Shown here in pieces: positions 6,940-64,000 of a stretch of DNA of 64,000 nucleotides (its first letter is position 1; each line of letters starts with the position of its first letter). A model generated the notes under the pieces. It saw only the letters and a program-made list of their open reading frames with translations. It was not told where the DNA came from and did not search any database. The stretch is from a phage, in assembly GCA_033648345.1 (NCBI GenBank), contig GCA_033648345.1_4121.1. The stretch is one strand, 5' to 3'. Made by a program: the position numbers and the translations under genes.

Positions 6940-8283
6940 TTATTTGTCAGTGAAAGTTATTTTCCAATATCCCTGACGATATACTGACATAATACTCTTA
7001 TGCCATTTGAATTTGTCATTATATCTATAATATCCACTATCTTCCATATTATAAACATAGTTGTGTACTCGCGATGGCTCAATAAGTTCTGCTCCATCAT
7101 TGGTAATTTTAAACAAATAGTTCGCTGGGATTTCAGTCTCTTTGTAAATGATGTTATGTATGCTATTATTTACATAATATTGTTCAGGTAGTGCGTTATA
7201 TAATAAAGAGTCTTTACTAATGAATCCATGTATTGTATAATCAACAGTATAATTACTATTATCAAGCTGAACTACAATCTTGTTAGAATCAGCCCCTTCC
7301 CCAAATGAAGAGATATGTCCTTTTAGTGGGTTATCCTCTTCTATAGCTTGTTGGAATTTAATACCTACAGTCTTGTCTTCATATTCTGGGTCCAAGTACT
7401 TAAGGTATTTTTCCCATGAATAAATCCCACCATTTGGTGATGTTTCCGATAGTGATTGACTAACAAGAGTGAGTTGGTAAGTATCTGGAATATTAAGTTC
7501 AGAGTTTGTTATTTCATCAACTTTAATACATAAGTTCTTTGGTGTGAATACATCAGTAATGATATCCGAGTAATTACCAATTTCAAAATCAAGTTCATCA
7601 CGAGCACCTTTAATATTGGTGGTGATTTGTTGGATAAGTTTTGGTTTCTCAACAATAGCTGGCAAAGAGAACCAAATTGTGGTTTCAAATGTCAATACCA
7701 TTATATCCAAATCACTATCGGTTCCTTGTGGGAAACCACGAGTAGTAAATTGACAGTCAATCAACTCCACATCACTCAATGATGTCCAATCCAATGGGTT
7801 CTCGGAGAGTTGTAGTTGAATACTAGGAGCAAACAATGTTGAAATTTGCTCAAATAGTTCCATTTTAGTTTGTGTTTGTGTAACCCAAATATTAACATCA
7901 AACGTAAATGTCCAAGGTACTGGGTTATGACGAGTTACTTTATACTGTTTATCTAAGTCTTTAGTATATTCGTTAATTCCAGGGGACTTGTTAGTCCCCA
8001 TAACTAATGTTTCATTTGCGTTTGAACGAACTGACTTGCGATCTAGTTTAAGTTGGTTTACACTAATGGTCATGATTGGTGCTGTTGGAAGCACGTTCTC
8101 ACTGTTACCATTAATAATTGCGGCTGCCATACGTGAAATATCTGCATAGCGGCAAGGAACTTTCTTATATTTTGGTTTTCCGTCAGCATCAACACCATTT
8201 TGTACTTGAAATTCACCAAACACTCTGATAAGATGTTTCAGTACTCGACGAAATTGACCATCATAATAATAATCTATTTTCAT
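6940..8283 (-). CDS. Hypothetical protein
   Basis: 447-aa ORF; ATG at 8283 overlaps the stop of the upstream gene; AAGGA RBS. Confidence 0.5.
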   Translation of the reverse strand: MKIDYYYDGQFRRVLKHLIRVFGEFQVQNGVDADGKPKYKKVPCRYADISRMAAAIINGNSENVLPTAPIMTISVNQLKLDRKSVRSNANETLVMGTNKSPGINEYTKDLDKQYKVTRHNPVPWTFTFDVNIWVTQTQTKMELFEQISTLFAPSIQLQLSENPLDWTSLSDVELIDCQFTTRGFPQGTDSDLDIMVLTFETTIWFSLPAIVEKPKLIQQITTNIKGARDELDFEIGNYSDIITDVFTPKNLCIKVDEITNSELNIPDTYQLTLVSQSLSETSPNGGIYSWEKYLKYLDPEYEDKTVGIKFQQAIEEDNPLKGHISSFGEGADSNKIVVQLDNSNYTVDYTIHGFISKDSLLYNALPEQYYVNNSIHNIIYKETEIPANYLFKITNDGAELIEPSRVHNYVYNMEDSGYYRYNDKFKWHKSIMSVYRQGYWKITFTDK

Positions 8284-9776
8284 TCTGAATCCTTATGTAT
8301 ACGATACGCTGTATTAGGTTTAACTGCATCATGTAATGGTACACGGTTCGGGCTATTAACAAATTCTGTTAGAGCAAGATCTGCACCTTCCCACGGTTTT
8401 CTACCACCGTAATCGAAAATCACCCAAGAATTCTTGGACGCACTGTATTCCCATAGGGTTACTGGTGTATAATCGGTACGATAGTAGTAATCACCATCAA
8501 CTGCATCACTTGGGAACATATTACCTTCAGGAACTGTACCTCGTGCTGGAGGAATCTTAGGACGATAATCTTGTTGTGAATCGATATTTCCATAAACACT
8601 ATTAGAAGTGAATGGGTCATTAACGTAAGTTACTTCTGGTTCTCCCCATTTACCATTTAAGTACTGATAAATGTGTGGTTCTTTGTATTCAATATAAAAA
8701 TCATCAACCCCTTGTGGTGGTGTGCTTTCTGTAGTATACTCAACATCACAATTTAGCCACTTTTTGGCAGATTTATCGTATTGATACAATGAGAAGCCAG
8801 TGACATCAGCCTCGTTTTCTTTAAAGAAGAAGTCACCATCCATCGGTTTGCGAGGAAAGATTGTTCCACGCTTGACTTCTACAGAAATCCATGTATCATT
8901 AGATAGTTCTTTCAGTACTGGGTAAGTTTTCTTGAGGAAATACATTTTATTTGCTGGTTCCTCTGGTAATTCGTATCCATTTAGCATATACTTAGACAAA
9001 TCAACAGTATCTGGTCTGTCATCGAACAAGTGTTCGTTAGTAAAATGAATGTATGGTACTTCATCATCAGCTTGCATAATGATACGGTTCATAATATCCA
9101 TTTCATTACCATAGCTGCTGTTCTCTGAAGAGCCATCATCAGTATTACCATTGCCGTTGTTTGGATCATCTGGGTCATCAGGGTAGTTATTGTTACCTAG
9201 AAGGTCAGAGTACTCTGGTGAATCAGTAAGAGGTTTAACACGGAGTTTGTAAATGTGATGTTGCCATGTAACTGAGTAACCTTCTGACGTTCTAAACCCA
9301 TCTTGTACTACATAGAAGCGGTTTAAACCAGAATCTTTACCAAGTACATCAAAATCACGTAAGTTAGGAAGTTCGATTACGTCACCTGGCATAATTTTTC
9401 TTCCCAAACGCTGAATCATTGTGTTATAATGAATTGTGATGTCCATAGTGTTAAAGTTGAAGAACAATCCTGGGATTTTCAAGTCAGGAGTTGCTTCTTG
9501 GACTTGGTAGACGCAACTTAAGGTGATAGCTTCGAGATTATAGTTACGACTTGGAGTGTCACCAAAAATTAAATCACCAATGCTTGACACAACGGTACTA
9601 TCTGATCCATAATAATCACCGCCGTATGATAAATCAGTGTTATCAGCGACTTGTTTTGGTCCGACATAGGCATAAAGCCACATGTCAACACCACCGATGT
9701 TGTATTGTTCTGCTATGGCAGAGTCAATGAACTTGTAATCATTGGTTCTACCTTTTTTCCACATTCTATATGCCAT
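8280..9776 (-). CDS. Hypothetical protein
   Basis: Track start 9788 is TTG; ATG at 9776 preceded by GGAGAC; 498 aa. Confidence 0.5.
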   Translation of the reverse strand: MAYRMWKKGRTNDYKFIDSAIAEQYNIGGVDMWLYAYVGPKQVADNTDLSYGGDYYGSDSTVVSSIGDLIFGDTPSRNYNLEAITLSCVYQVQEATPDLKIPGLFFNFNTMDITIHYNTMIQRLGRKIMPGDVIELPNLRDFDVLGKDSGLNRFYVVQDGFRTSEGYSVTWQHHIYKLRVKPLTDSPEYSDLLGNNNYPDDPDDPNNGNGNTDDGSSENSSYGNEMDIMNRIIMQADDEVPYIHFTNEHLFDDRPDTVDLSKYMLNGYELPEEPANKMYFLKKTYPVLKELSNDTWISVEVKRGTIFPRKPMDGDFFFKENEADVTGFSLYQYDKSAKKWLNCDVEYTTESTPPQGVDDFYIEYKEPHIYQYLNGKWGEPEVTYVNDPFTSNSVYGNIDSQQDYRPKIPPARGTVPEGNMFPSDAVDGDYYYRTDYTPVTLWEYSASKNSWVIFDYGGRKPWEGADLALTEFVNSPNRVPLHDAVKPNTAYRIHKDSE

Positions 9777-9818
9777 GTTTGTCTCCAAAATAAATCGGGT
9801 ATATCTTTATTTACCTTG

Positions 9819-9846
9819 TTGACAAACGCAAAGAATGTGATATAAT
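9819..9846 (+). promoter_or_regulatory. Sigma70-type promoter for the ClpA-like gene
   Basis: TTGACA (9819-9824), 16-nt spacer ending TGa, TATAAT (9841-9846). Confidence 0.6.
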
Positions 9847-9884
9847 GTTTATTAATTAGAGTGACTACTCATTTAGGAGAATAC

Positions 9885-12173
9885 ATGAATCTTACCCAAT
9901 TATTCAAAAAAAGCGACGAACTGGCAACTTCTCTGGGTCATACCTTCTTGACTATTGACCATCTAAGTGCTACAGTACTGACAATCGATAGCATCAAAGC
10001 AGTATTTGAAGATATGAACATCGATGCAGACAACCTACACGGTCGTTTGATTGCATATCTGAAGAATACAACATTCCCACATGCACCTAAAAGTGCTGAT
10101 GGTGATGAAGCGAACCGCACATCACTTCTCGTGAACCGTGTAGTTCAGGAACTTTCTAAGAAATCAGTAATTGAGCAACTTAAACGTGATGATTTCTCAA
10201 TTGATGCTTATTTTGTACTGTTTGAGTGTTTGTCCTTCCCAAATACTGCACTAGAAGCAGCATTGCGTGAAGAGGGTATCACTTGTACTGAAGCAGCACG
10301 AACTCTACAGAAGCACGTAGAAGCAATCGACAACGGAATCAACCTTCAAAGCATTAGTGATGAGCCAACTGGGGAGAAAAAAGTGGCACAACAACAACCA
10401 TCGTCCAAACAAAAAGGTTTAGAAGATTACACCACTAACCTAACCGCACTTGCAAAAGAAGGTAAACTTGACCCAATGATTGGTCGCCAGAAAGAGCTTT
10501 CTGCACTGATTGAAACTCTGGCCCGTAAGACTAAGAAGAATGCTATCCTGACTGGTGAAGCTGGTGTTGGTAAAACTCAAATCATTGATGGTCTAGCACA
10601 GGCAATCGCTGATGGTGAAGTACCAGAGCATCTTAAAGATGTTGAAATTCTGTCTCTGAACGTAGGTGCACTGACTGCTGGTACTAAGTACCGTGGTGAG
10701 TTCGAAGAACGTATCGATAACCTACTAAAAGAACTGAAGAAACGTGAAAACACTATTGTGTTCATCGATGAAATCCATATTATGGTTGGTGCTGGTTCAG
10801 CAAGCAACGGTTCTATGGATATGAGCAACATGCTCAAACCTGCACTATCTCGTGGTGAGATTCGTGTAATCGGTGCAACAACTTACGATGAATATCGTAA
10901 AAACATCGAAAAAGATAGTGCACTAACTCGCCGTTTCATGAAAATTGATGTAGTTGAGCCAACAATTGATGAAACCCGTGCGATTGTGAATGGTTTGAAA
11001 TCTACTTATGAAACTTTCCATAACGTAGAGTTCAGTACTGAAGCAATGGATGCAGTTATTACACTAAGTGATAAGTTCCTGAAGAACAAACACTTCCCTG
11101 ACAAAGCAATCGACCTAATGGATGCGGCAGCAGCGAAAGTACGTTCTCGTGAAACTGATGATAACATCATCACTGTTGCACTGATTCAAGAAGTTGTTGC
11201 AGGTATCGCAAACCTAGATATTAATGTGGTTGCTTGCACTGAAAGTGAACGTATGCGTAATCTACCAGATGCACTCCGTTCTCGTGTATACGGTCAAGAA
11301 GAAGCAGTACAGAAACTGGTTGATAACGTGATGGTAGCTCGTGCTGGTCTGCGTGATAAATCAAGTGTTCAAGGTGCATTCATGTTTGTTGGTCCATCTG
11401 GTACTGGTAAAACTGAAATTACCAAAGCACTGGCTGATGCAACTGGTTCTGAACTGATTCGTTTCGATATGTCCGAGTTTTCACAGGAACATACTGTTGC
11501 TAAACTGATTGGTTCACCTCCAGGCTATGTTGGTCACGATTCTGGTAACGGTCTGCTACTCGACAAGATTGAGCAGTTCCCGAATGCAGTACTGTTGCTT
11601 GATGAAATCGAAAAAGCTGATCGTAAAGTACTACTAACCTTCCTACAGGTTCTGGACGAAGGACGTTTGACTGGTTCACAAGGTAAAACTGTTTACTTCA
11701 ATAACGTAACTGTTATTATGACGACTAACCTTGGTGCAGCAGATTCAACCAAGCGTAGTATTGGGATGAGCGGTAGTGATACAGCACAAGATAAAGCTAT
11801 TAAAGCATTCTTGCCACCTGAATTCATCAACCGTATCGATAGTATTGTGACATTCAAAGACCTAAGCAGCGAAGCGATTGACAGCATCATTGATAAGTTC
11901 ATGGGTAGTCTGAATGAACAAATCAAAGACCGCAAAGTTAAAGTTTCCCTGACTAAAGCGGCACGTGAGTGGTTGGCAACAAATGGTGTTAAAGTTGGGA
12001 TGGGTGCACGTCCAATGAAACGCACTATTGAGCAAAACATCCGTGTCCCACTAGCTAAAGAGATGTTGTGTGGTTCTCTGGTTAATGGTGGTAACGTAAC
12101 GTTTGATGTGATTGATGGTAAATTGGCTATCAAACCTAAACGAACTAAAGCAGTAGAAAAAGTTATTGCGTAA
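9885..12173 (+). CDS. clpA: ClpA-type ATP-dependent Clp protease ATP-binding subunit (N-domain plus two AAA+ modules)
   Basis: Near-colinear with E. coli ClpA from memory: two Walker A motifs (GEAGVGKTQ, GPSGTGKTE), GARPMKR sensor, candidate ClpP-docking tripeptide IGM; track start GTG 9861 replaced by ATG 9885 with AGGAGA RBS. Confidence 0.85.
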   Translation: MNLTQLFKKSDELATSLGHTFLTIDHLSATVLTIDSIKAVFEDMNIDADNLHGRLIAYLKNTTFPHAPKSADGDEANRTSLLVNRVVQELSKKSVIEQLKRDDFSIDAYFVLFECLSFPNTALEAALREEGITCTEAARTLQKHVEAIDNGINLQSISDEPTGEKKVAQQQPSSKQKGLEDYTTNLTALAKEGKLDPMIGRQKELSALIETLARKTKKNAILTGEAGVGKTQIIDGLAQAIADGEVPEHLKDVEILSLNVGALTAGTKYRGEFEERIDNLLKELKKRENTIVFIDEIHIMVGAGSASNGSMDMSNMLKPALSRGEIRVIGATTYDEYRKNIEKDSALTRRFMKIDVVEPTIDETRAIVNGLKSTYETFHNVEFSTEAMDAVITLSDKFLKNKHFPDKAIDLMDAAAAKVRSRETDDNIITVALIQEVVAGIANLDINVVACTESERMRNLPDALRSRVYGQEEAVQKLVDNVMVARAGLRDKSSVQGAFMFVGPSGTGKTEITKALADATGSELIRFDMSEFSQEHTVAKLIGSPPGYVGHDSGNGLLLDKIEQFPNAVLLLDEIEKADRKVLLTFLQVLDEGRLTGSQGKTVYFNNVTVIMTTNLGAADSTKRSIGMSGSDTAQDKAIKAFLPPEFINRIDSIVTFKDLSSEAIDSIIDKFMGSLNEQIKDRKVKVSLTKAAREWLATNGVKVGMGARPMKRTIEQNIRVPLAKEMLCGSLVNGGNVTFDVIDGKLAIKPKRTKAVEKVIA

Positions 12174-12206
12174 AAAAGAAAAGGAGAGCAAATGCTCTCC
12201 TTTTTG
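12174..12206. terminator. Bidirectional intrinsic terminator
   Basis: Hairpin GGAGAGC-AAAT-GCTCTCC (12183-12200) flanked by A-run and T-run; near-identical hairpin recurs at 57509-57526. Confidence 0.65.
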
Positions 12207-15200
12207 TTATTTAACTTCTAATAGATTTTTAATGTCATTACCACTTATTTGCAAACTATCGGAGTAAACAGATAGTTCGATTGGATAACTGTTAACACTA
12301 TAACGTTTTAGTAAATTAACTTTACCTAAGTTCAAGCCATTAAATGAATATGTCACATTCTCTTTAAAGTCGTGTTCTGCACTATACATTACCCCACGGA
12401 GTAAGTTATTTGCAAAACGTACTTCAACTTTTTCAAAACCAAGAGAAATAATATCATTCATACTTGCACCAGCACCAGATAGAACATTATTAGTAACACT
12501 ATATGGACTAACTGAATCTGGTTGTGAAACATAAGTAGTATTTTCTTCACTGATAGCAGTAATGTTAGTTACTGTTCCACCAACTACACCAATATATGTA
12601 TCACTAACTAGTGGATATGCATATTCCCATACCCCTTCAGTATTCAGTACTGGTTGAATAATACCAACATCATACTCGAACACGTTAATTTCCACACTAT
12701 CAGTCATTTTGGTTCTCACTAACTCACTAAGAACACCTGCACCAGTAATTGGTAAGTTATATCCGTTATCAATGGTAACACCATCAACTTCAAATATCTC
12801 GTTAGACACTACCCAAACATCAACGTCATCTGGTGTAATTCCATCATTATAAGAACCACCGTATAGTGTTGTGTCGTAGAATACTTCATAGTTCATTGCA
12901 TCGATAGCATAGTTTCTATTTGTTTCATACAACTTAACACCATCAACCAAGAATTCTGGATCAGCAAAGGTTCTAATACGAACAATGTTCAATGCTAGAG
13001 GTATTGCTGGTTCATTCTGTTGTTGTTTAGTGATGTTATCATAACGAAGTACAACTCCAGTACTATCTAGTAGTTCTACAGTTCCGTTCGCAGTGTTTCT
13101 TACTGTGTACAAGGTTGGTGTGGTGTCAGTTTTGATTTTTGATACACTCAAGATGGTTTCCCATGCATTGTTTTGGTATCTCACATAATCTTCACCATCA
13201 GTTGTGAATATCATAACCTTATCACCATCAGATAGGGTATTGTCAATTACTTCAGCTTCTGTATCACTAACAATTGATTTAATTTTATAGAAGTATTTTT
13301 CATCATACTTACTGTATGATTTACTAATATCATTTTCAATCTTAGCGTAAGAAGGAATACTAACAATTGCTTCTGTTGTTTTATAAGGGTTGATAATAAC
13401 CATACCTTCAGTTTTATATCTACTATTGTCTCTCAATTGAACTAGTGAAACACTATTGAATCCATAACCATCAACTGTGAAGCGAATCTGACCAATCTTT
13501 CTTCCTGATGGGTTAATATCAGAAATGTCGATTATGTACGGATCTACTTCGTCACCTTCAACTTCCCATTTTAACTCGGAAGTTTGTGATTCAAGTGCTA
13601 GGTTATCAAATGCATTCATATCATCGTAGTACTTAGCATCGGTGATGCTATCTAGGATGTGCTGATAATCACTGTACATTGGGTTATTTCTATCAAGAGG
13701 TAAGTCATCAAGATTTATTTCTGCCAATTGAACTAGTTGACCGTCAGTTATGAATTTGTCTTCCATGAAATCATCAATGCTTTGGTCATCTGGGATACTC
13801 TCGTATACACCATTAACATTAACATAAACATATTTTCGTGGCATCATAGTAAATGCATGAATATCAATAGGCATTCTACTTAGTATTTCTTCAGCCTTTT
13901 CATAATGGTCGGTAGCATCTTTGTCATACAAACCACGCATACCGGACAATACATGAATTGCGTCATTGTAGAATCGTTGATTTCCATCTTCATCTACATG
14001 GCGATATGAATAAACACCATATTCAACTTCAAGTATAATTCTAACTTCATCATCAGTTGCAGTAGTATTGTTTTCTTTAATTAAAGAAACATACTTTTTA
14101 TACAACTCACTACTAACTTCAAAGTAACCAAAGTTATAATCAGTACTGGATGCATAACCAAACGGTAGTCTGGTGCTTGGATTATCATCATAGGTTAACC
14201 CACTAAATCCACATCCAACTTCATCATGAATTACTTCATCATCTGCACCTGTGTACAATTTCAAACGGTTAGAGAGTGTGTTATACTGAACGTAATGATT
14301 TACGTCATTAAACATTTCATTTTGTGTTGATTCTTTATATACACGATTCAACGTTTCTGTGAATTCTGCGGTTGCTACCAAATCATCTGCATGGTCTGCA
14401 TACCATTGGTTAACACCGTAAGCAATCCCTAGAGTTACGTTCAATTCTGGGTAATACAATTGCATCTGATAAGCAACCAATAGGTCGAAATCTTCATCAC
14501 TGTATTCTGGGAATGTATATTTGTAACGTTGTAATTCAAAATTACTAACAACATCTTGTGCATTAGATTGATATTTCTTATTCACTTCTTCCAATACATC
14601 AACACTTGCCAAATTATCATTTGGTTTACATTGAGTGTTGTCGTAGTGCATGATAACATCAATTTCTTGGAAACGGCGATTAGGTGTTACGAAATCACTT
14701 GGCAATTCACCAACTTGCTCCCAACGTTGAGTTACCTCATTGAATTGAGCATATTCATAATCCCAAATGTCTTTTTCCGTTTTAACCCAAGTCCCATCTG
14801 CAAATATATAGCCATTAGGATCTAAATCATTACACAAACCTTTAATTAAATCATCATCTGAAGTTTTCTGTTCAATCTGGGAACGAATCTTAGTTCTATA
14901 TGGTTTAACTTCTTCAAAGTACTCAACGATTTGATTAATCAAGTTGTCGTTGGAATAGTTCTGTACTAATGATTGTTCTAAACCTACAATATAAATGTAA
15001 GATGTTTTGAATACCCAATCAACAACGCTTTGTTCTACGTGAACATACTTAACCATATCAAACACAATTTCACTCTGATGTAAGTCGAATGAGTTCTTCA
15101 ATAAAGCTAGTGCTTTACGAACGTTAATCTCACGATTACTCAACGAACCATTAGCATCACGAACTGTATAGTCAGCGTATAACATATCATTCAATTCAAC

Positions 15201-18200
15201 TGTACTATTTTCACGACCAATTGCTTTCCAGTAAACTGAATCACGTGATTGTGCTTTAATGTACAATGTCCAGATGCCATCAACATCTGTAATTCTGATA
15301 ATGTCACCAACTTGATAGTTCTTAGTGTTTGCATCTTCTAGGCTGGATTCTTGTGTATATGCAGTATTTTTATCGTAACCAATATCATACCAATCTGCTA
15401 GTGACCAGTACTGGGTCATGTCCAATGAAGTTCCTAGTGCTTCAACATAGTCTGATTGTTTAATCATTTTCTGTTGACCTTCACCACGGTTTTCCAATGT
15501 AATGGTAACCACACTACCAGCACTTGATGGACTATTCATTAGATGAATATAACCATTAGCATCAATATGCACAAAATATACAGAGCTAGTTGATAGTGGG
15601 TTAGGTAATACACCACTAGTACTTACTAGTACTGCGTCATTTTCTTTGAACTTGTCACTTTCAGGTGCAATGACTAATTCACTATTGTAAGTTAGTACAC
15701 GATATGATACTTCATTCGGGTTAACTTCAGTAGTTTTAACATTAAACACTTCGTCCATTAGAACAGTGTTAGTTGTTATATTCTGTGAGCGATAATAGTT
15801 ATTTGCACTTTCTACAAAGTTTCTACGAGCTTCAATTACATCTTGGAACCAAGTCTTATTAGAACCTAAACCGTTTGGTACTAAAGGATATAGTAAATCA
15901 ATAACAGTTCCTGATTCAGTAGTTTCTTGACCAATCATAGAATTCCACATAGAAGTCCAGATTGATGGATTGAAGTTATAGCTATCACCTTCTTTACATA
16001 ATTGATACTGGTCATGTTTAATAACTTCAGTATTATCCATGTAATAAGAAACAGTTAAAATACTTGTGTCATCGTTGACTTCAAATTGCATATTACTTAG
16101 AATGAACGAGCTTTCATTGATTGGTGCAAACCAAGGAATGTTAAGCTGTGCTGGTTCTTTAATAATACGAGCAATATCAGTACAAGATTTAGTTCTGGAA
16201 TGCAATGGTGGTACATAGATTGTATCACGAACCCAGAAATAGTATTTTGTAACATAAGTATCAGTTGTGCTATCATATTCTAAGAACGTACTATAATTAT
16301 CTTCCAATGCGGTTCCGCTTGGTAGGTACATAGTGTTGTTTTTATTTTTGTTAGCAACGTCTTTACAGTATTTGTCCCAGTTATATGGTTCAACTGGCGA
16401 ACATACCCATTCAAGAACATCAACAGTACTGTGCGGTAGCAATCTGCCCCAGTTATAACGTTTATATTCATTTGTTGCATCAACATCCACATTACCATCA
16501 GCATCATAGATTGCACGAGTGTAATCTAAGTAGAAAGCAGTGCTGGTGTTCCACCAAACCTGACCAACTTTATCAGCACCCCATGCTTGAATCAATTCAC
16601 CATTGCTGTTGTATTGTGCTGGGTCAACTGGAGATGTGTAGGTAACGTTCTGCATCGCTGCACCAGGAATAACACCGTTGATTGGGTCAAACACGTTTAG
16701 GTACAACGCAGTAATGTTAGTACGCTCATCATATGTGGTTGGGCGGTCAAACAAAGTACTTTGTGGAGCTTTAAAACTATATTTTCTGTCAATGTATTCC
16801 TGACGCATCTCTTCAGTACTGAATCGTGAAACATAACGATACAAGCGTGGGCGAGTATCAGGATCAGTGAAGTCAATAGTGATTGAAGTGTCAAACGGAA
16901 CTACCATAACTCTAGGGTCATTACCCGCAGTATAATATTGACTTTCTATAGTCAATGTATCTGGCATAAAGTTAGTTTCATCAACAAAGTAATAATAATC
17001 ACCATCATTTAGTGGGATATCATCACTTAGAGTTACTTTACAGAATTGTTCTGCATATACATCGGTATTTTCAATTGGAACGATAGAGAGCATCTCAACT
17101 TCAGTGTCTATTAGTTCGAAAATATTCCACAAATCATTACCATCTTTAAACATCCATACAGAATCTGGGATTTCACCACTGTTATTCATATAATTGATAC
17201 GATCATTATATGCAGTACTGAAATCTTTAGTAACGTATGAAATTTCATCTAGTGTCACAGGACCAATGTCTGGAAGTTGGATATTCTCACTTCTTCCACT
17301 ACGCATTGGGAATGAAAACTTACCATTTGGACGAGTAATCCAGCGTGAGTCAACCCCTTGTTCACCGTAATAAACAATACCATTACCAGTACCATTTGAT
17401 GTAGCATTAACATCAAACGAAACCATCTGTGGTTGTTGTTTAAATTGGTCATTGATTAGTTTAAATTGTAGATTTTTCTTACCATTGATATTACCATAAG
17501 TACCAATCTTAAATGCCCATTCCTGAAGTGCTTTATATTCATCAGTGTCGTAAGATTTAGAAACGCGTAGTACTTTTTCCATTACTTGGTTAGTACCTTT
17601 GTCATGAATGAATCCTTTATAGAAATCAACACGACTAACATCACTACTAATCATACGTTGTAGATAATCACGAGTTTGATAGCCAATCAAGTGATTTGAT
17701 AACTCTTGAAGCTGAACATCACTCACAGGAGTTTCACTATTATAATATAATTCAAAATCAGTTACTAATTTTTCAAATGATGGTAAAGTTCCTGCTTCTA
17801 GTATAATGAAACCAGGTGCTTGTAGGCGACCAGTCCATGACCCAGTAATGTAACCATACATTTTAATCAATTCTTGAATAGCACCATAAGTTGGTTGGTA
17901 AATGTAATCACCAAAGATAGTTTTATCATCAAAAACAACTGCGTGTTCATATGAACTTAGGCTCAAACGAATCAACGCCATACGTTTTTGTGATTCGGAT
18001 GTAGTTCTCACTGTGAATACGTTACCGATACGCGAAGTTTCGATTTCATATTGACGGATACCTTGGTTTTCATCATCGAGTAGTGACCAAACACCACCAC
18101 TATTCTGTGTAACAGATTGAACTGAACCAAAATCCGCACCAAATTTAGCATTAGCTGCACTTGGAGTACAGGAGATGAACTCACCAGTACTTAAATTATT

Positions 18201-21200
18201 CTGACTCCAAATAACAAAGTCTTTAGCAATAGTTGTCCAGTCTTGTTGAGTACCACTATCATTTACATCTTCAAAAATCCAGCCATGTTCTTTTAGATAT
18301 TCACCATATCCACAAATGAAAGTATAAACTTCTTGGTATGTATTGAATATTTTACCATATTCTAACGTACCTTCAGATTTCCATTCATTGTAATGAACAA
18401 CAGTTCTGTCTTCCAATTTAAGAGTTACTTTTCTTCCATTTTTAACTGGAATTTTATATTTAAATTTAGCACCAACTAAATCATAACCATCAATTTGATA
18501 TGCACTACCATTCCAAGTAATTTTTACTGCACTCATTTGCTCATCGCGAATGTTATTGGAACGAACTAGACCGATAGTTTGGTTTTCTTGTGAAATCAAA
18601 CCGAAAGATTTAGCAGTGAATGTCAATTGGTCTGCTTTAGTAAAGCCACCAATTTTGTGAGCAACATTAACATAAGAAGAACGAACAACGTCACCGTATT
18701 TGGTGGTAATGTTCTTATTCTGATACATCAAATAGTCACTAACAAACATTTGATAACCGATAGTACGGGTATTTTTCTCACCATGTACTAATGTAGTACT
18801 GTCAAAGTTTAGACGCTTACGAGTTTCACCATAAAGGAACTGTGAACCATCAGTATAAACTGGTTTAAGGTTATCATTACGGGTATCCCAGTAATAGTTT
18901 GCAAACTGTGCTGGTTTTGCTTTGTATAGAAGAAGCATTTGGTCATAAGCAAACATCGCAGTGTTCATGTAAGTGAATTCCATGTCACCCATGTCACCAT
19001 AAGCCCACGGTTCTGCACGATGATCTAAATTACCACTAACAAGACCTAAAACTTCAGGTGCAATATATTCAACTTCACAAATATCAATACCAGTACTGGT
19101 TTTCTCGCCAGTCTTAGTGATTTTAAATGGCTGTACACCGAAACGCTTGTATTTGTCATATTGACCACGGCGTTCACCGGACAAAATAGTACCAGTGCTG
19201 CTGTCACCGATAGTACCATCAATATCCCACAATCCACTTGGGACCAAATCACCACTTTCATTCATTACTAGTGCTTCATACACATAAACAACATCACCCT
19301 CACGTTCACCAACTTGAACTGCGGTTGGTTCGTATTCTTGGTTCCACCAAGTAGGACGTTGAGAGAAGCCCATCATTTCCCACGGGTGGGTTGCTGGACG
19401 ATATGTTCCGTATTGATCAGTATAGATTGCACGCCATGAACCACGAGCAGGAATTTCAGTACGTTGACCATCAACAACATAATAACTACCAGTATAGTTC
19501 CAAGTTCTCCAGTTATTTGCATCATAATCATGAGTACTGTTACTAATACTATTGGTTGCTGTGAAGTTAATGTAACCACGTAGTAATAGAGTTTTCTTTT
19601 CTTCTGCACTATAATCAGTACCAGTGAAATATGGAGTTGGGAATAGGTCTTCACTGTTTAGTACTGGTTTATAATCAATATCCTTGAAAGTAAGGTCAAT
19701 ACTATTAAAGATACGATTCTCCAATTCGAAAACAACGTCATCCATTTTATCAACACCATTGATAACACGGTATGCTTTTGAAATAATACCAGTATGACTG
19801 ATATTATACCAGCTAGATTTACTACCAGCAGTTAAGAATGTTGCTTTTTGTGGTGTATAAGCTTGCAAAATACCCAAGAACTGTGGAGTTGGTGGGACAA
19901 ATGCACGAATAAACCCAGCAGTGCTTGCAACGTTGTCATAGTAGAATGGGAATGTACTATCACGTCCCATATTAATAGCTGTTAGAATCGCATCTACGAT
20001 GTTTGATGCACTATTACCAAGAAAAGCACTTGGGTCTTCTTCATACAAACGAAGCATTTGAGTGTTGAACTTGTTAATGAAGCGGAAGTATTCTGCTTGC
20101 ATAAACATGATTGATTCAAACAAATCAATATCTTCATTAGCGGTATGTGCCATTAGTGGTAATATGGACGCTTCGTTTTGAATAATTTTAGTGCCTACAC
20201 CATTATTAACCAAACCAGCAGCCAAACGTTCTTCGTAATTGTTAAAGTCATCAGCAGAACCAGATGTAATATTCTTTTGAATAATATCTTGGAAGTGCAG
20301 GGTGTAATCACCTTGGTTGATGTATTCAATGTTTGAATTATATGGGTTATTTTGTAGGTTAATTGGAACTTCATATGCACCCAACTCTTTATTAGGAGTG
20401 ATAGTGCTACTATAAGTTCTGATTTGTACAACAGAATCTTCATCCAAATCAACAGAACTATCAATTGTAATACTTTGTACTTGATTATTAACTACAGTTT
20501 TGGTGTATTCTTTTATTTCCACACCATCAACAACTAGTTCGATAATATCATCAGAATTATCTAGTACTTTTTGTGCCAATTCAAATGTATGATTGTACTT
20601 AACGCTTTGTACCCCATCACCAACGATAACATGCCAATCAAGATATGTTTCACGTTCTGCTTTGTAATATTGATAAGTTCTGTCAACTTCAATTACATAA
20701 GCATACATTCCTTCAACTGGGTCTTTGAAACTTTCCATGTCATAAACAGTACTGAACACGCGGAACATTACTGTACGTTCAACCTGTGGAGTTTGTTTAA
20801 CATATTGTTTGGAGTATTCAGTACTACGAACCCAATCAGTTTCTAGGTTCATTGTATTACCTTCACCAATTACGTTATAGTAATATAGTCCATCAATTTC
20901 AACTTCCACACCCAAATGCTCGTAAGTATAACGAGTTGATTGTAGGAAATTCTCATAGGTGTAATAATTGTAATCACCTAGTTCAATGTTATAACCATAA
21001 ACGCTATCGGTTGCATAATTATAGTTAATTTTAAAACCAAATAATGAAGAACCAGTAAAAGTACTTGATGGATAGGTAGTAGTGTTGTTTAGTTTAACAC
21101 CATTACGGTCATACAATTGGAATTGTGGAAATACGTTCACAGAAGTTTTAGACTGTGCTTGAATCCAATGAGAACCGTCCCAATACATGGAACTGTTACC

Positions 21201-22178
21201 AAATTCATTACCTTTGATAATAAGAACTACGTCACCATCTTGTGGTTCACCACTCGGACGGCTTTCAGATTCTTCGTCTGGATCTAATGCTAGACCATAC
21301 ACACGTGTTCCATCTTGCATACGTTTAACATATACTTTATAAATTCGGTTGTTTTCACCATTGTTACCAATACTGGTGAAAAGAATACGCATACCATCTT
21401 GTGGAATAATACCATCAATACGTATACCGCTGTTAATATCTTTTTGTACGATATCTTCAGGTTTAATAATATCAGAGAACAAATCAACTGTCCCACGGAA
21501 TTTAGTACCGTAGTTCATTAGTTCGATATTTTTATTGTATTCGATAATTGGTGCACGAGCACGAACAAAACGGGAATCTTGCATTAGTTCTTCAGTTAGG
21601 ATAGTACCATCTTCTAAAGTTTCACCTAATGTGTACCAGAAGTTTTGTAGTGACCAAGTGTTACCATTTTCTGCACCACGTTCCATTACAATATAATCTG
21701 GAGTTGTGATATTATAGCTATTCTTGGAATCCCATAGGTATGAACTGTAGTTGTTCATTTTATTTGGGTTAATTGGTGGGGTCCATGAATAGAACTTACC
21801 ATTAAACAAACGGCTTTCATTTTCGGTTAGTGCACCGTAATGATTCATATAGCCAACTAGATCATCATAAAATTGAATTGAACGAATGCTGGAGTCATCA
21901 TTTCTTGAGACATACGCAGTGGACAACTGATATAGTTGACGTGCGACTGTTGACTCGTGTAAGAAGATGTTCCCTGCTGCTGCCGGAGAACCCATGTCAC
22001 CAATGTAGCCGTCAACTAATTCGTTTTCAGCCGGATTAAACCATTGTTGGATAACATCATCACTGACTTTCTGAATATCTTCTAAGCCTTGCATCCACTC
22101 AGGCAATCTTTTTATGAAAAGCTTCTTCTGTACTGCTTCAGCCATCTGTGTAGGTTGAAACTTAAAATTATTAGTCAT
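12207..22178 (-). CDS. Giant protein (~3323 aa) of unknown function, in the baseplate/tail module
   Basis: Uninterrupted 10 kb ORF; ATG at 22178 has GGAG RBS (track start 22208 has none); no enzyme motif recognised; followed by a gp25-like gene and a spike gene. Confidence 0.7.
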   Translation of the reverse strand: MTNNFKFQPTQMAEAVQKKLFIKRLPEWMQGLEDIQKVSDDVIQQWFNPAENELVDGYIGDMGSPAAAGNIFLHESTVARQLYQLSTAYVSRNDDSSIRSIQFYDDLVGYMNHYGALTENESRLFNGKFYSWTPPINPNKMNNYSSYLWDSKNSYNITTPDYIVMERGAENGNTWSLQNFWYTLGETLEDGTILTEELMQDSRFVRARAPIIEYNKNIELMNYGTKFRGTVDLFSDIIKPEDIVQKDINSGIRIDGIIPQDGMRILFTSIGNNGENNRIYKVYVKRMQDGTRVYGLALDPDEESESRPSGEPQDGDVVLIIKGNEFGNSSMYWDGSHWIQAQSKTSVNVFPQFQLYDRNGVKLNNTTTYPSSTFTGSSLFGFKINYNYATDSVYGYNIELGDYNYYTYENFLQSTRYTYEHLGVEVEIDGLYYYNVIGEGNTMNLETDWVRSTEYSKQYVKQTPQVERTVMFRVFSTVYDMESFKDPVEGMYAYVIEVDRTYQYYKAERETYLDWHVIVGDGVQSVKYNHTFELAQKVLDNSDDIIELVVDGVEIKEYTKTVVNNQVQSITIDSSVDLDEDSVVQIRTYSSTITPNKELGAYEVPINLQNNPYNSNIEYINQGDYTLHFQDIIQKNITSGSADDFNNYEERLAAGLVNNGVGTKIIQNEASILPLMAHTANEDIDLFESIMFMQAEYFRFINKFNTQMLRLYEEDPSAFLGNSASNIVDAILTAINMGRDSTFPFYYDNVASTAGFIRAFVPPTPQFLGILQAYTPQKATFLTAGSKSSWYNISHTGIISKAYRVINGVDKMDDVVFELENRIFNSIDLTFKDIDYKPVLNSEDLFPTPYFTGTDYSAEEKKTLLLRGYINFTATNSISNSTHDYDANNWRTWNYTGSYYVVDGQRTEIPARGSWRAIYTDQYGTYRPATHPWEMMGFSQRPTWWNQEYEPTAVQVGEREGDVVYVYEALVMNESGDLVPSGLWDIDGTIGDSSTGTILSGERRGQYDKYKRFGVQPFKITKTGEKTSTGIDICEVEYIAPEVLGLVSGNLDHRAEPWAYGDMGDMEFTYMNTAMFAYDQMLLLYKAKPAQFANYYWDTRNDNLKPVYTDGSQFLYGETRKRLNFDSTTLVHGEKNTRTIGYQMFVSDYLMYQNKNITTKYGDVVRSSYVNVAHKIGGFTKADQLTFTAKSFGLISQENQTIGLVRSNNIRDEQMSAVKITWNGSAYQIDGYDLVGAKFKYKIPVKNGRKVTLKLEDRTVVHYNEWKSEGTLEYGKIFNTYQEVYTFICGYGEYLKEHGWIFEDVNDSGTQQDWTTIAKDFVIWSQNNLSTGEFISCTPSAANAKFGADFGSVQSVTQNSGGVWSLLDDENQGIRQYEIETSRIGNVFTVRTTSESQKRMALIRLSLSSYEHAVVFDDKTIFGDYIYQPTYGAIQELIKMYGYITGSWTGRLQAPGFIILEAGTLPSFEKLVTDFELYYNSETPVSDVQLQELSNHLIGYQTRDYLQRMISSDVSRVDFYKGFIHDKGTNQVMEKVLRVSKSYDTDEYKALQEWAFKIGTYGNINGKKNLQFKLINDQFKQQPQMVSFDVNATSNGTGNGIVYYGEQGVDSRWITRPNGKFSFPMRSGRSENIQLPDIGPVTLDEISYVTKDFSTAYNDRINYMNNSGEIPDSVWMFKDGNDLWNIFELIDTEVEMLSIVPIENTDVYAEQFCKVTLSDDIPLNDGDYYYFVDETNFMPDTLTIESQYYTAGNDPRVMVVPFDTSITIDFTDPDTRPRLYRYVSRFSTEEMRQEYIDRKYSFKAPQSTLFDRPTTYDERTNITALYLNVFDPINGVIPGAAMQNVTYTSPVDPAQYNSNGELIQAWGADKVGQVWWNTSTAFYLDYTRAIYDADGNVDVDATNEYKRYNWGRLLPHSTVDVLEWVCSPVEPYNWDKYCKDVANKNKNNTMYLPSGTALEDNYSTFLEYDSTTDTYVTKYYFWVRDTIYVPPLHSRTKSCTDIARIIKEPAQLNIPWFAPINESSFILSNMQFEVNDDTSILTVSYYMDNTEVIKHDQYQLCKEGDSYNFNPSIWTSMWNSMIGQETTESGTVIDLLYPLVPNGLGSNKTWFQDVIEARRNFVESANNYYRSQNITTNTVLMDEVFNVKTTEVNPNEVSYRVLTYNSELVIAPESDKFKENDAVLVSTSGVLPNPLSTSSVYFVHIDANGYIHLMNSPSSAGSVVTITLENRGEGQQKMIKQSDYVEALGTSLDMTQYWSLADWYDIGYDKNTAYTQESSLEDANTKNYQVGDIIRITDVDGIWTLYIKAQSRDSVYWKAIGRENSTVELNDMLYADYTVRDANGSLSNREINVRKALALLKNSFDLHQSEIVFDMVKYVHVEQSVVDWVFKTSYIYIVGLEQSLVQNYSNDNLINQIVEYFEEVKPYRTKIRSQIEQKTSDDDLIKGLCNDLDPNGYIFADGTWVKTEKDIWDYEYAQFNEVTQRWEQVGELPSDFVTPNRRFQEIDVIMHYDNTQCKPNDNLASVDVLEEVNKKYQSNAQDVVSNFELQRYKYTFPEYSDEDFDLLVAYQMQLYYPELNVTLGIAYGVNQWYADHADDLVATAEFTETLNRVYKESTQNEMFNDVNHYVQYNTLSNRLKLYTGADDEVIHDEVGCGFSGLTYDDNPSTRLPFGYASSTDYNFGYFEVSSELYKKYVSLIKENNTTATDDEVRIILEVEYGVYSYRHVDEDGNQRFYNDAIHVLSGMRGLYDKDATDHYEKAEEILSRMPIDIHAFTMMPRKYVYVNVNGVYESIPDDQSIDDFMEDKFITDGQLVQLAEINLDDLPLDRNNPMYSDYQHILDSITDAKYYDDMNAFDNLALESQTSELKWEVEGDEVDPYIIDISDINPSGRKIGQIRFTVDGYGFNSVSLVQLRDNSRYKTEGMVIINPYKTTEAIVSIPSYAKIENDISKSYSKYDEKYFYKIKSIVSDTEAEVIDNTLSDGDKVMIFTTDGEDYVRYQNNAWETILSVSKIKTDTTPTLYTVRNTANGTVELLDSTGVVLRYDNITKQQQNEPAIPLALNIVRIRTFADPEFLVDGVKLYETNRNYAIDAMNYEVFYDTTLYGGSYNDGITPDDVDVWVVSNEIFEVDGVTIDNGYNLPITGAGVLSELVRTKMTDSVEINVFEYDVGIIQPVLNTEGVWEYAYPLVSDTYIGVVGGTVTNITAISEENTTYVSQPDSVSPYSVTNNVLSGAGASMNDIISLGFEKVEVRFANNLLRGVMYSAEHDFKENVTYSFNGLNLGKVNLLKRYSVNSYPIELSVYSDSLQISGNDIKNLLEVK

Positions 22179-22226
22179 TTTTGGACTCCATATAATTCGT
22201 TCATTCATTTGATTTATTTATGATAT

Positions 22227-47715: not shown

Positions 47716-47738
47716 TAATAAAGAATTTAAATATACTA

Positions 47739-47768
47739 GGGACTCTTCGGAGTCCCTTTTCTTTTTTC
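47739..47768 (+). terminator. Intrinsic terminator after the capsid gene (UUCG tetraloop)
   Basis: GGGACUC-UUCG-GAGUCCC followed by a U-rich run. Confidence 0.65.
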
Positions 47769-47779
47769 AGAAAAAAAGC

Positions 47780-47808
47780 TTGACAAGTAGATTTTAATTA
47801 TATATAAT
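47780..47808 (+). promoter_or_regulatory. Consensus sigma70 promoter
   Basis: TTGACA (47780-47785), 17-nt spacer, TATAAT (47803-47808). Confidence 0.6.
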
Positions 47809-47843
47809 TACCACATACCAAAAATCACAAAGAGACAAATAAA

Positions 47844-48950
47844 ATGCCAAAAGTAAGTATCGACAAAGAAAAATTCATTGAAGAGATGAACAACAAGTAT
47901 GGAGCATATGGTGAATTTGATTTCAGCACTTTAGTATTCAAAGCCAGTAAGACAACAGTTAAATGTAATAAATGCGGAAAAGAAAATACTAAACCTGCAC
48001 TACGTCACATTTCATGTACATGTTCTTCATGTTATTCAAACATGTCACAGCGTTCGAACAACGAAAAATTTATCAGCACGGTAGAAACTAAATTTGGAAA
48101 AGATAAATTCAAATTTGATAAACTAAATTACATTAACGCTATAACAAAAGTAACCATACTCTGCACAGACGAAGAACATAACGATTACTTTGAAATTACA
48201 CCAAACAAATTTCTTACTGGTAAGGGATGTCCTATATGTAATAAAAATGAAGCATACAGTACTGAAGAATTCGTAGAAAAAGTAAAAGAAAATTATGGTG
48301 ATTCATTAGATTTAACTAACACAGTATATGTAAATCAAAAAACTAAAGTAACTGTGTATTGTAAAGCGGGTAACCATGAATGGACAGTTGATCCGAAAAC
48401 TTTACTTGTTGGTAAGACTGGTTGTGGTACATGCTCCGGTAAAGGTGGTCGCAGTACTGAACGTTTCATTGAACTGGTATCACCTATCCATAACCATAAG
48501 TATGATTATAGTTTGGTTGAATATACTATAAGCGAGAATTATGTTGATATTGTATGTCCAACTCATGGTGTTTTCTCCCAACAACCAAAAGCACATATGG
48601 CTGGTAAAGGATGCCCATCATGTGGTGAATATGGATATCAGCCATCAAAACCTGGATATTTCTATGTTCAAAAACTAACTAATAAAGATAAGACAGTGTA
48701 CAAGTATGGAATCACTGGTGATATGAAACGCCGTGTAAATGAGCAAAGTCGTCATTCTGGTTTTGAACACACAGTACTGATAGAACGTTACTTTGAAGAT
48801 GGAAATCAACCATTACTGTTGGAAAAGTTCATAAAGAAATACATTGAAAGTGGTGTTGTAAGTACTGAAGAGTTGCCATCAGGATTTACTGAAACTTTTG
48901 ATGCTAAGTATCTTGAAAGTGTTTTAGAAATTGTAAATACTTTTAAGTAA
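47844..48950 (+). CDS. Protein with tandem zinc-ribbon repeats plus C-terminal T5orf172 (GIY-YIG superfamily) domain
   Basis: Three to four ~60-aa repeats each ending GKGCPxC / GCGTC with paired Cys; C-terminal GYFYVQK...YKYGITGDMKRRVNE block matches the T5orf172 pattern. Confidence 0.6.
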   Translation: MPKVSIDKEKFIEEMNNKYGAYGEFDFSTLVFKASKTTVKCNKCGKENTKPALRHISCTCSSCYSNMSQRSNNEKFISTVETKFGKDKFKFDKLNYINAITKVTILCTDEEHNDYFEITPNKFLTGKGCPICNKNEAYSTEEFVEKVKENYGDSLDLTNTVYVNQKTKVTVYCKAGNHEWTVDPKTLLVGKTGCGTCSGKGGRSTERFIELVSPIHNHKYDYSLVEYTISENYVDIVCPTHGVFSQQPKAHMAGKGCPSCGEYGYQPSKPGYFYVQKLTNKDKTVYKYGITGDMKRRVNEQSRHSGFEHTVLIERYFEDGNQPLLLEKFIKKYIESGVVSTEELPSGFTETFDAKYLESVLEIVNTFK

Positions 48951-48973
48951 ACAACCATAAGGAGTTGACACGG

Positions 48974-58974: not shown

Positions 58975-64000
<5,026 letters not shown>

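Follow-up and report, generated by a model that had tools for sequence, protein, structure and literature searches.

Among the systems with which a phage-encoded Clp protease can be compared, the ClpAPS N-degron protease of Escherichia coli, made up of the unfoldase ClpA, the protease ClpP and the adaptor ClpS, provides the bacterial reference. The docking helix-loop-helix of ClpA inserts into pockets of ClpP (bioRxiv 10.1101/820209), and E. coli ClpS has a disordered N-terminal extension that threads into the ClpA channel and plays a role in hand-off (PMC9663308). Homologues of these components are also found in phages. Work on the Agrobacterium phage Atu_ph07 and a survey of jumbo-phage genes by Iyer et al. 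2021 (PMC7824862) report phage ClpA, ClpP, ClpS and ClpX, with roles in host-protein degradation or virion assembly being proposed, and Attai et al. 2018 describe ClpA as conserved in most Rak2-like phages. Here we consider the clpA-like gene, with its promoter, at positions 9,819 to 12,173 of a 64,000-nucleotide stretch of phage DNA (contig GCA_033648345.1_4121.1 of assembly GCA_033648345.1), the whole of which is referred to as the window. On balance, we favour the reading that this gene encodes the unfoldase of a phage-encoded ClpA-ClpP protease, whose other parts lie outside the window.

What does a lytic jumbo phage do with an unfoldase of its own, and with which ClpP does it work? An earlier note on this DNA, made from the letters alone, had described an orphan ClpA, with no ClpP in the window, that could redirect the ClpP of the host. 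The presence of the gene as such is already known and annotated in a known phage group, the counterpart in phage fEgEco12 (g327) being annotated as ClpA in GenBank. In their searchable text the Atu_ph07 and Iyer et al. papers provide gene lists, and no analysis of the docking interface or of promoter classes, nor a universal co-occurrence of the three genes in the Rak2-like clade, is found there. A search for published experimental work on the function of phage ClpA, ClpP or ClpS returned genome descriptions only. The practical value of the present analysis is that it locates a ClpP and a ClpS-like adaptor outside the window and so corrects the premise of an orphan ClpA.

A divergent ClpA within a phage lineage

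Nine deposited jumbo coliphages, vB_Ec-M-J, Ecwhy_1, fEgEco12 and EC.P1 among them, match the region at 99.0-99.5% identity, and the PBECO4/121Q group (Asteriusvirus) matches it at 84%. With fEgEco12, 62 kb of the window aligns to positions 158192-221493 in three blocks of 99.4%, 99.5% and 98.0% identity. Judged by these alignments the source is a Rak2-like jumbo coliphage, near-identical to fEgEco12 and related to Asteriusvirus PBECO4/121Q, and the whole fEgEco12 genome is used below as a proxy for regions outside the window.

The open reading frame (ORF) list gives a plus-strand ORF at 9861..12173 that opens at a GTG. As every homologue begins with MNLTQLF, the start is reassigned to the ATG at 9885, such that the full-length ClpA-like gene described in the earlier note stands but its product has 762 rather than 763 amino acids (aa). 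The colinearity with bacterial ClpA claimed there, with N-domain, D1, D2 and both Walker A motifs, is borne out. The best NCBIfam match is to ClpA (TIGR02639; E 8e-226, 751.6 bits), in a single collinear stretch that pairs residues 3-741 of the protein with positions 5-733 of the 734 in the model, whereas the ClpB, ClpV, ClpK and ClpG models align only as two separate pieces, the expected signature of a protein without their middle domain. Indeed, there is no coiled-coil middle domain, and the alignment to E. coli ClpA crosses the D1-D2 junction with an insertion of only 2 residues. An identity as ClpB, ClpC or ClpV is out, as these models match in two pieces and with lower scores. The top solved structure is that of E. 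coli ClpA (1ksf, E 5.6e-178), and the protein matches PHROG 4871 with 1020 bits.

Set against bacterial ClpA (E. coli; TIGR02639; PDB 1ksf and 6w1z), the phage protein has the same order of N-domain, D1, D2 and D2-small, and every ATPase and pore-loop motif is intact. Thus Walker A reads GEAGVGKT in D1 (aa 224-231) and GPSGTGKT in D2 (aa 503-510), Walker B reads IVFIDEIH and LLLDEIE, respectively, and the KYRG and GYVG pore loops, the Arg fingers of both rings and sensor-2 are all present, as is the docking insertion at the same position. What sets it apart is its degree of divergence. Identity to E. coli ClpA is 40.8% overall, with 50% in D1, 44% in D2 and 19% in the N-domain, and the curated equivalog cutoffs are missed (TIGR02639, 751.6 against 993.15; PRK11034, 648.7 against 1350), even though ClpA remains the top family. 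Because the scores fall below these cutoffs while ClpA scores best, the protein is filed, on its sequence, as a divergent member of the ClpA family rather than as an equivalog. The N-domain gives a marginal Pfam Clp_N match, of one repeat only (21.2 bits against a cutoff of 20.7); precomputed Clp_N matches exist for many ClpAs of the phage clade. It is 68% identical to the N-domain of RaK2, and two bacterial ClpAs in the same comparison share 61% there. By its motifs the gene specifies a genuine, functional-looking ClpA-family unfoldase.

Unlike its bacterial counterparts, the gene resides in a lytic jumbo phage and has been passed down among related phages. Homologue searches yield a phage clade that extends without a break from 100% to 53% identity (837 bits); beyond a gap come one sequence at 45% and then the gammaproteobacterial ClpAs at about 40% (584 bits at most). 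This gap to bacterial ClpA sets the protein in a distinct phage clade and speaks against a recent host copy. Its nearest kin are the Rak2-like ClpAs (RaK2, GAP32, CBB_235, PBECO4, 121Q and fEgEco12 g327; PHROG 4871), of which it is a member at 61-100% identity, sharing genomic position, extended -10 promoter and terminator and differing in nothing essential. The ClpA of phage PA5oct stands further off: it is 41% identical, retains a canonical IGF tripeptide and is encoded behind a DnaJ-like gene. The dN/dS ratio (nonsynonymous to synonymous substitution rates) against PBECO4 is 0.04, with a dS of about 1.07, values that indicate strong purifying selection on the phage ClpA. GC content at third codon positions (GC3) is 31.6%, compared with 25.8% in the adjacent phage gene and a GC content of 36.6% for the window. 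Megablast of the gene against 5,426 complete E. coli genomes gave no match.

Candidate partners beyond the window

When E. coli ClpP, ClpS and ClpX, as well as the ClpP and ClpS-like proteins of the phage, are used as tblastn queries, ClpA itself is the only match in the window, so the absence of a ClpP holds for the window. It does not hold for the genome, since near-identical fEgEco12 encodes both a ClpP (g207) and a ClpS-fold protein (g414). The first of these matches Pfam CLP_protease at 1.3e-41 (143 bits against a cutoff of 20.2) and is 36% identical to E. coli ClpP by tblastn. It has a short propeptide and an N-terminal axial-loop motif, IPYVVEK..ERTYD, that aligns with LVPMVIEQ..ERSFD of E. 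coli, and the Ser-His-Asp triad is intact in all seven of the phage ClpPs aligned. Judged on these features, g207 is a canonical ClpP with a complete triad. At their C-terminus the Rak2-like ClpPs are also extended by about 22 conserved aa (..GPRNEEGKYLVKRRGGVEEWV), which are absent from E. coli ClpP and from the PA5oct-type ClpP; the C-terminal strand of ClpP is part of the docking pocket.

Several other annotations in these genomes touch on ClpP. Some GenBank records label the phage ClpP as a head-maturation protease, a role that is rejected here as the primary reading, in favour of the T4 gp21-type prohead protease, fEgEco12 g348 (Peptidase_S77, 8e-21), which lies in the region of the window, between the portal and major capsid genes. 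In mass spectrometry (MS) of the CBB virion, ClpP was seen by one peptide only. The protein g214, encoded in fEgEco12 outside the window, has a borderline ClpP-fold match (20.6 bits) and a hydrophobic N-terminus. As for g216 and g518, also outside the window and annotated as protease and HslV, they have no Pfam match and only weak HslV similarity (E 0.16 for g216); both begin with MT. The 'peptidase' g432 has a Rv2179c-like exoribonuclease domain instead.

The adaptor, g414, is annotated as a protease adaptor in fEgEco12. Pfam ClpS matches 17 of the 19 members of its family, and when the family profile is compared with the PDB, ClpS is the only family among the top 10 matches (E 4e-5). An AlphaFold2 (AF2) model of a 96%-identical homologue has a predicted local distance difference test score (pLDDT) of 84; the top 34 Foldseek matches of this model are all ClpS, and in the best matches it superimposes on E. 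coli ClpS with a target-normalised template modelling (TM) score of 0.88-0.91 and a root mean square deviation of 1.2 A. In the predicted structure, then, g414 has the ClpS core fold. It is not a ClpS of the E. coli kind in two respects. Where the E. coli adaptor has a disordered extension, residues 1-65 of g414 are conserved and predicted to be folded, with three strands and two helices at a pLDDT of 72-88. Secondly, where E. coli ClpS has N34 and H66, two residues that we take to be N-degron contacts, the alignment shows an invariant D82 and N114 in the g414 family, so that the N-degron pocket residues of ClpS are not preserved. Because g414 is a variant adaptor and the ClpA N-domain is very diverged, a phage-specific selection of substrates is suggested.

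Phage records with ClpA (at least 60% identity) number 71, those with ClpP 70 and those with the ClpS-like protein 72; it is roughly one set of some 70 Rak2-like records in which the three genes recur. Divergence from fEgEco12 is broadly parallel for the three genes: in the PBECO4/121Q group ClpA, ClpP and the ClpS-like protein are 93%, 96% and 86% identical, in the Klebsiella group 75%, 74% and 64%, and in CBB 62%, 70% and 38%. This pattern is consistent with co-inheritance of clpA, clpP and the clpS-like gene. The PA5oct-type phages likewise hold both ClpA (41%) and ClpP (34%).

The docking interface

Does the phage ClpA retain the means to bind a ClpP, and if so, which one? The docking helix-loop-helix is found in D2 at the homologous place, between MTTNxG and PEFxNR, and is retained in every homologue. 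Within it, the IGM tripeptide that the earlier note had placed at the IGL docking loop of ClpA does align with I617-G618-L619 of the E. coli protein, and the loop is kept, but the tripeptide itself is not conserved across the phage clade. Its third residue is Met, as against the canonical [LIVM]-G-[FL]. The bacterial neighbours have IGF, MGF or IGL, while within the phage clade the motif is variously IGM, LGL, LGM, IGA, IGV, IGG, MNM, MSM, LGF, MGM, LGH, VGM, IGF, VGF, IGL or IGY. The flanking contact residues also differ: a basic residue and a His that follow the tripeptide region in E. coli, and that contact E26 and R192 of ClpP, are not conserved in the phage loop.

The ClpP side of the interface is altered as well. 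In E. coli ClpP the pocket is lined by A52, L48, F49 and F82 of one protomer and by L23, Y60, Y62, I90, M92, F112, L114 and L189 of the neighbouring protomer, with E26 and R192 providing electrostatic contacts (10.1101/820209). The same positions in the phage ClpP read S, V, W, S and M, T, Y, V, M, L, G, I, and E26 and R192 are replaced by D and P. Thus, two of the 12 pocket residues of g207 are identical, six are conservative replacements and four are non-conservative (A52S, Y60T, F82S and L114G). Y60T, F82S, L114G and R192P recur, with small variations only, in the Rak2-like ClpPs. The altered ClpP pocket together with the variable ClpA tripeptide suggests, at the level of sequence, an interface that is evolving within the phage pair and is perhaps partly insulated from the Clp partners of the host. 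The same variability could equally reflect weakened docking, and covariation between tripeptide and pocket was compared in seven phage pairs, too few and with too little variation to draw a conclusion.

These features bear directly on the proposal that E. coli ClpP, instead of or besides the phage ClpP, is the docking partner of the phage ClpA and is redirected by it to new substrates. The docking loop is present, IGM is one residue away from the IGL of the host, and host ClpP would already be at hand when infection begins and phage ClpP has yet to build up. The ClpP of enterobacteria, on the other hand, is expected to vary hardly at all. As the phage interface does vary, with tripeptides as dissimilar as IGG, IGA, MNM and LGH in phages of these hosts, an obligate docking on host ClpP is argued against, and the lack of conservation, in the phage loop, of the basic residue and His with which E. 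coli ClpA contacts ClpP points the same way. An intact phage ClpP is moreover found in every relative checked. Since the phage encodes its own ClpP and a ClpS-fold adaptor, redirecting host ClpP is unnecessary, though possible. The orphan ClpA of the earlier note is correspondingly weakened, and we regard capture of host ClpP as quite unlikely.

Promoters, gene order and expression

The clpA gene is a lone plus-strand gene amid minus-strand tail and baseplate genes, and the architecture described in the earlier note, with an isolated gene between minus-strand structural blocks, a consensus extended -10 promoter and a strong terminator, is confirmed on each count. Both flanking genes are structural and on the minus strand. 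The promoter, TTGACA-16-TGaTATAAT, matches the sigma70 consensus at 12/12 positions and carries the TG; it is the sole 12/12 match between 5 and 24 kb of the window. When the full extended pattern is sought with one mismatch allowed it is the sole match in the 64-kb window, the chance level being 0.16 expected matches, with at least one match in 15 of 100 shuffles. Beyond the stop codon, the terminator has a 12-bp stem with T-runs on both strands and also serves the convergent minus-strand gene for a giant structural protein. Together these sequence features support clpA being an independent transcription unit with its own promoter and terminator.

The arrangement is conserved. The same two minus-strand structural genes, of 1.5 kb and 10 kb, enclose clpA as the only plus-strand gene between them in Asteriusvirus, Alcyoneusvirus, Mimasvirus and Eneladusvirus, as well as in the unassigned phage fENko-Kae01. 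In each case an extended -10 lies 35-48 nt ahead of the ATG and the stop is followed by a terminator hairpin, and GGAG precedes clpA at equal spacing in relatives. The extended -10 upstream of clpA is kept in PBECO4, KP13-7, fENko-Kae01, CBB, GAP32, Serratia BF and Yen9-03.

Across fEgEco12, the sigma70 consensus is matched at 11/12 positions or better 135 times on the plus strand but 13 times on the minus strand, with the matches clustering among small early-type ORFs. The promoters of clpA and clpP have the same GTGATATAAT extended -10 subtype (xGACA-N16 with GTGATATAAT), that of clpP being TAGACA-16-TGaTATAAT with the -10 ending about 35 nt before the ATG. There are 23 plus-strand and 0 minus-strand GTGATATAAT sites in fEgEco12, and within the window the subtype occurs only at the clpA promoter. 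Besides clpA and clpP, sites of this subtype precede g214, the gene for a gp32-type single-stranded-DNA-binding protein and g308, an AAA-like ATPase gene with a tandem pair of perfect promoters. The promoter of the IF3/ClpS-like operon is a 12/12 match.

With regard to timing, the clpA promoter of CBB has been published as Porf_235, in a class termed 'divergent RpoD-like'. This class, which also takes in the promoter of the gp55-like late sigma factor gene, has most of its members ahead of a gene region with many DNA-synthesis genes. The class is therefore common to replication genes, and is not the very-early class. It is probable, from the promoter sequence, that clpA is read by the host sigma70 polymerase before late-gene expression. 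The early expression proposed in the earlier note had been deduced from the promoter and finds no backing in this comparison.

Direct observations of the protein come from MS. The ClpA homologue of fENko-Kae01 has been detected by liquid chromatography-tandem mass spectrometry in a lysate fraction of >300 kDa (PMC11218385), and in the readable parts of the tables of virion proteins of phAPEC6 and CBB, ClpA was not found. Packaging of ClpA in the virion was considered and is unsupported by the phAPEC6 and CBB lists; the fENko-Kae01 detection was made in a lysate fraction and is no demonstration of packaging.

Expression and gene order are also where a ClpP-independent role has to be weighed, in which ClpA would act as a chaperone or remodelling factor for virion assembly (on the adjacent 3333-aa protein, for instance), or as a translocase, with the phage ClpP acting elsewhere. 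In all Rak2-like genera examined clpA is wedged alone between the same two structural genes, and in PA5oct it directly follows a gene for a DnaJ-like chaperone. A translocase or assembly function has been suggested by Iyer et al. 2021 (PMC7824862), and E. coli ClpA alone can remodel RepA (introduction of 10.1101/820209). Yet the synteny argument is weak, as gene order is broadly conserved in these genomes anyway, and the gene has a sigma70-type promoter, of a class that in CBB is common to replication genes, on the strand opposite the late structural genes. Furthermore, the ClpP-docking insertion is kept in every homologue, whereas pure disaggregases such as ClpB are without it. An exclusively ClpP-independent role seems to us improbable, with no better standing than the capture of host ClpP.

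Finally, a recently captured host gene, or moron, without phage-specific adaptation is effectively refuted: although some database entries name Escherichia coli as the source of the protein, these being 350-kb phage contigs in bacterial assemblies, the low identity to E. coli ClpA, above all in the N-domain, the scores below the NCBIfam ClpA cutoff, the gap between the phage clade (at least 53%) and bacterial ClpA (about 40%), the phage-like GC3, the want of any nucleotide match in the complete E. coli genomes searched and a synteny kept across at least four genera all stand against it.

A probable phage-encoded ClpA-ClpP protease

The reading that we prefer, and hold to be the probable one with a fair measure of reservation, is that the phage encodes a ClpA-ClpP(-ClpS-like) protease, its genes read from sigma70-type promoters, with ClpA as the unfoldase. 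On this reading the host sigma70 RNA polymerase would transcribe clpA as a unit of its own, apart from the surrounding late structural genes. Hexamers of ClpA would then dock through their IGM loops on tetradecamers of the phage ClpP, unfolding selected proteins and feeding them to ClpP, with the divergent N-domain and the ClpS-like adaptor setting the choice of substrate. Candidate substrates would be host proteins, including those of defence, or phage proteins whose removal times the infection cycle.

In comparison with E. coli ClpAPS, the phage thus has a ClpA unfoldase, a triad-bearing ClpP with the axial-loop motif and a ClpS-fold adaptor, but its genes are dispersed over about 170 kb, its ClpP combines the pocket changes described above with the conserved C-terminal extension, and the first 65 or so aa of its adaptor are predicted to form a folded domain.

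A number of points weigh against a phage ClpA-ClpP protease. What links ClpA to the phage ClpP is genomic co-occurrence, and the three genes are scattered rather than joined in an operon, ClpP being encoded some 87 kb upstream of clpA and the ClpS-like protein some 82 kb downstream. On the ClpA side of the interface, Met stands in place of the canonical Phe/Leu as the third residue of the tripeptide, and the degenerate motifs of relatives (IGG, IGA, MNM and LGH) could mean that docking has been relaxed or lost; on the ClpP side, the pocket is without three large hydrophobic residues (Y60T, F82S and L114G) and R192. In fENko-Kae01 the note of detection by MS is attached to the ClpA entry, with none on the ClpP entry. 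The fixed place of clpA within the tail/baseplate cluster in every relative would also fit a role in assembly.

A bolder version of the phage ClpA-ClpP protease, to which we attach limited credence, is that the Rak2-like phages possess a self-contained, orthogonal ClpA-ClpP-adaptor protease. Its docking interface, that is the variable phi-G-phi tripeptide, the pocket with Y60T, F82S, L114G and R192P and the ClpP C-terminal extension, would have drifted from that of the host, such that the phage proteins pair preferentially with one another and escape host ClpX, ClpA and ClpS, while selected host proteins, such as those of defence or housekeeping, would be recruited for destruction in the pre-late period by the adaptor with its new N-terminal domain. 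If the phage does run an ATP-dependent protease of its own, this would offer a tractable case of a virus that brings a complete machine for regulated degradation, going beyond adaptors and inhibitors of host proteases, and a natural experiment in the re-tuning of a hexamer-heptamer docking interface. The substrates could reveal targets of host takeover or anti-defence in a widespread group of jumbo coliphages that are therapeutic candidates.

Coordinates, neighbouring genes and other features

The features of the locus, its neighbours and the proposed partners are collected in Table 1. The convergent 3333-aa ORF has homologues in every relative, as 10-kb genes without functional annotation; in phAPEC6 the homologue has been identified by mass spectrometry as the virion protein gp245, of 382 kDa.

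Table 1. Features of the clpA locus in the window and of the putative partner genes in fEgEco12 (positions in the window unless stated otherwise).
Feature	Position	Strand	Details
T4 gp15-like tail sheath stabiliser	6940-8283	-	Pfam 4.7e-22
502-aa ORF, structural	8280-9788	-	Flanks clpA upstream; ORF list and relatives' genomes
Sigma70-type promoter	9819..9846	+	TTGACA 9819-9824; 16-nt spacer with TG at 9838-9839; extended -10 TGaTATAAT 9838-9846, TATAAT 9841-9846
Shine-Dalgarno AGGAG	9875..9879	+	5 nt upstream of ATG
clpA-like coding sequence	9885..12173	+	762 aa plus stop (included in the positions); 100% identical to fEgEco12 g327 product
Divergent N-domain, aa 1-150	9885..10334	+	Single Clp_N repeat detected, aa 11-59
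D1 AAA+ module	10545..11171	+	Pfam AAA, AAA_lid_9; lid domain included
D1 motifs	10554-10577; 10686-10697; 10755-10778; 10929-10937	+	Walker A; KYRG pore loop; Walker B; RRF arginines
D2 AAA+ module	11373..11846	+	Pfam AAA_2, 3.3e-49
D2 motifs	11391-11414; 11523-11534; 11592-11612; 11829-11840	+	Walker A; GYVG pore loop; Walker B; Arg finger NRID
IGM tripeptide of ClpP-docking loop	11760..11768	+	aa 626-628; aligned with E. coli ClpA I617-G618-L619
D2-small C-terminal domain	11862..12101	+	Pfam ClpB_D2-small 1.3e-21; sensor-2 GARP 12003-12014
Bidirectional intrinsic terminator	12178..12205	both	12-bp GC-rich stem, T-runs either side
3333-aa ORF, structural	12207-22208	-	Convergent with clpA; ORF list and relatives' genomes
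ClpP (g207)	fEgEco12 80543-81238		231 aa; Pfam CLP_protease; about 87 kb upstream of clpA
ClpS-fold protein (g414)	fEgEco12 251795-252340		181 aa; annotated protease adaptor; about 82 kb downstream of clpA

At the PA5oct locus (193241-196146), 10 nt separate the start of the ClpA homologue from the preceding gene for the DnaJ-like chaperone, on the same strand; in Atu_ph07, too, ClpA adjoins DnaJ (PMC6102473). Chaperone-related genes are found in fEgEco12 as well. Two GroES (Cpn10)-like proteins are encoded (Pfam 1.1e-16 and 1.1e-4), one at 213976-214278, which corresponds to about 56.5 kb of the window, and the second elsewhere, alongside a small DnaJ-type zinc-finger protein. By these assignments the two GroES-like proteins, the DnaJ-type protein, ClpA, ClpP and the ClpS-like protein make up a sizeable set of proteostasis genes.

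Two further features of the window lie away from the clpA locus. Directly after the major capsid gene, about 1.2 kb (47732-48973) is absent from the otherwise 99.4%-identical fEgEco12. The 368-aa product of an ORF within it (47844-48950, plus strand) carries several CxxC zinc-finger repeats, its C-terminus being weakly T5orf172/GIY-YIG-like, and the segment looks like a mobile homing-endonuclease insertion. The large terminase (60581-62883, plus strand) is present as three overlapping ORFs, 60581-61267, 61239-61583 and 61546-62883, each one +1 frame on from the last. Three terminase pieces are likewise annotated in fEgEco12, and could represent a split gene, programmed frameshifts or common sequencing errors.

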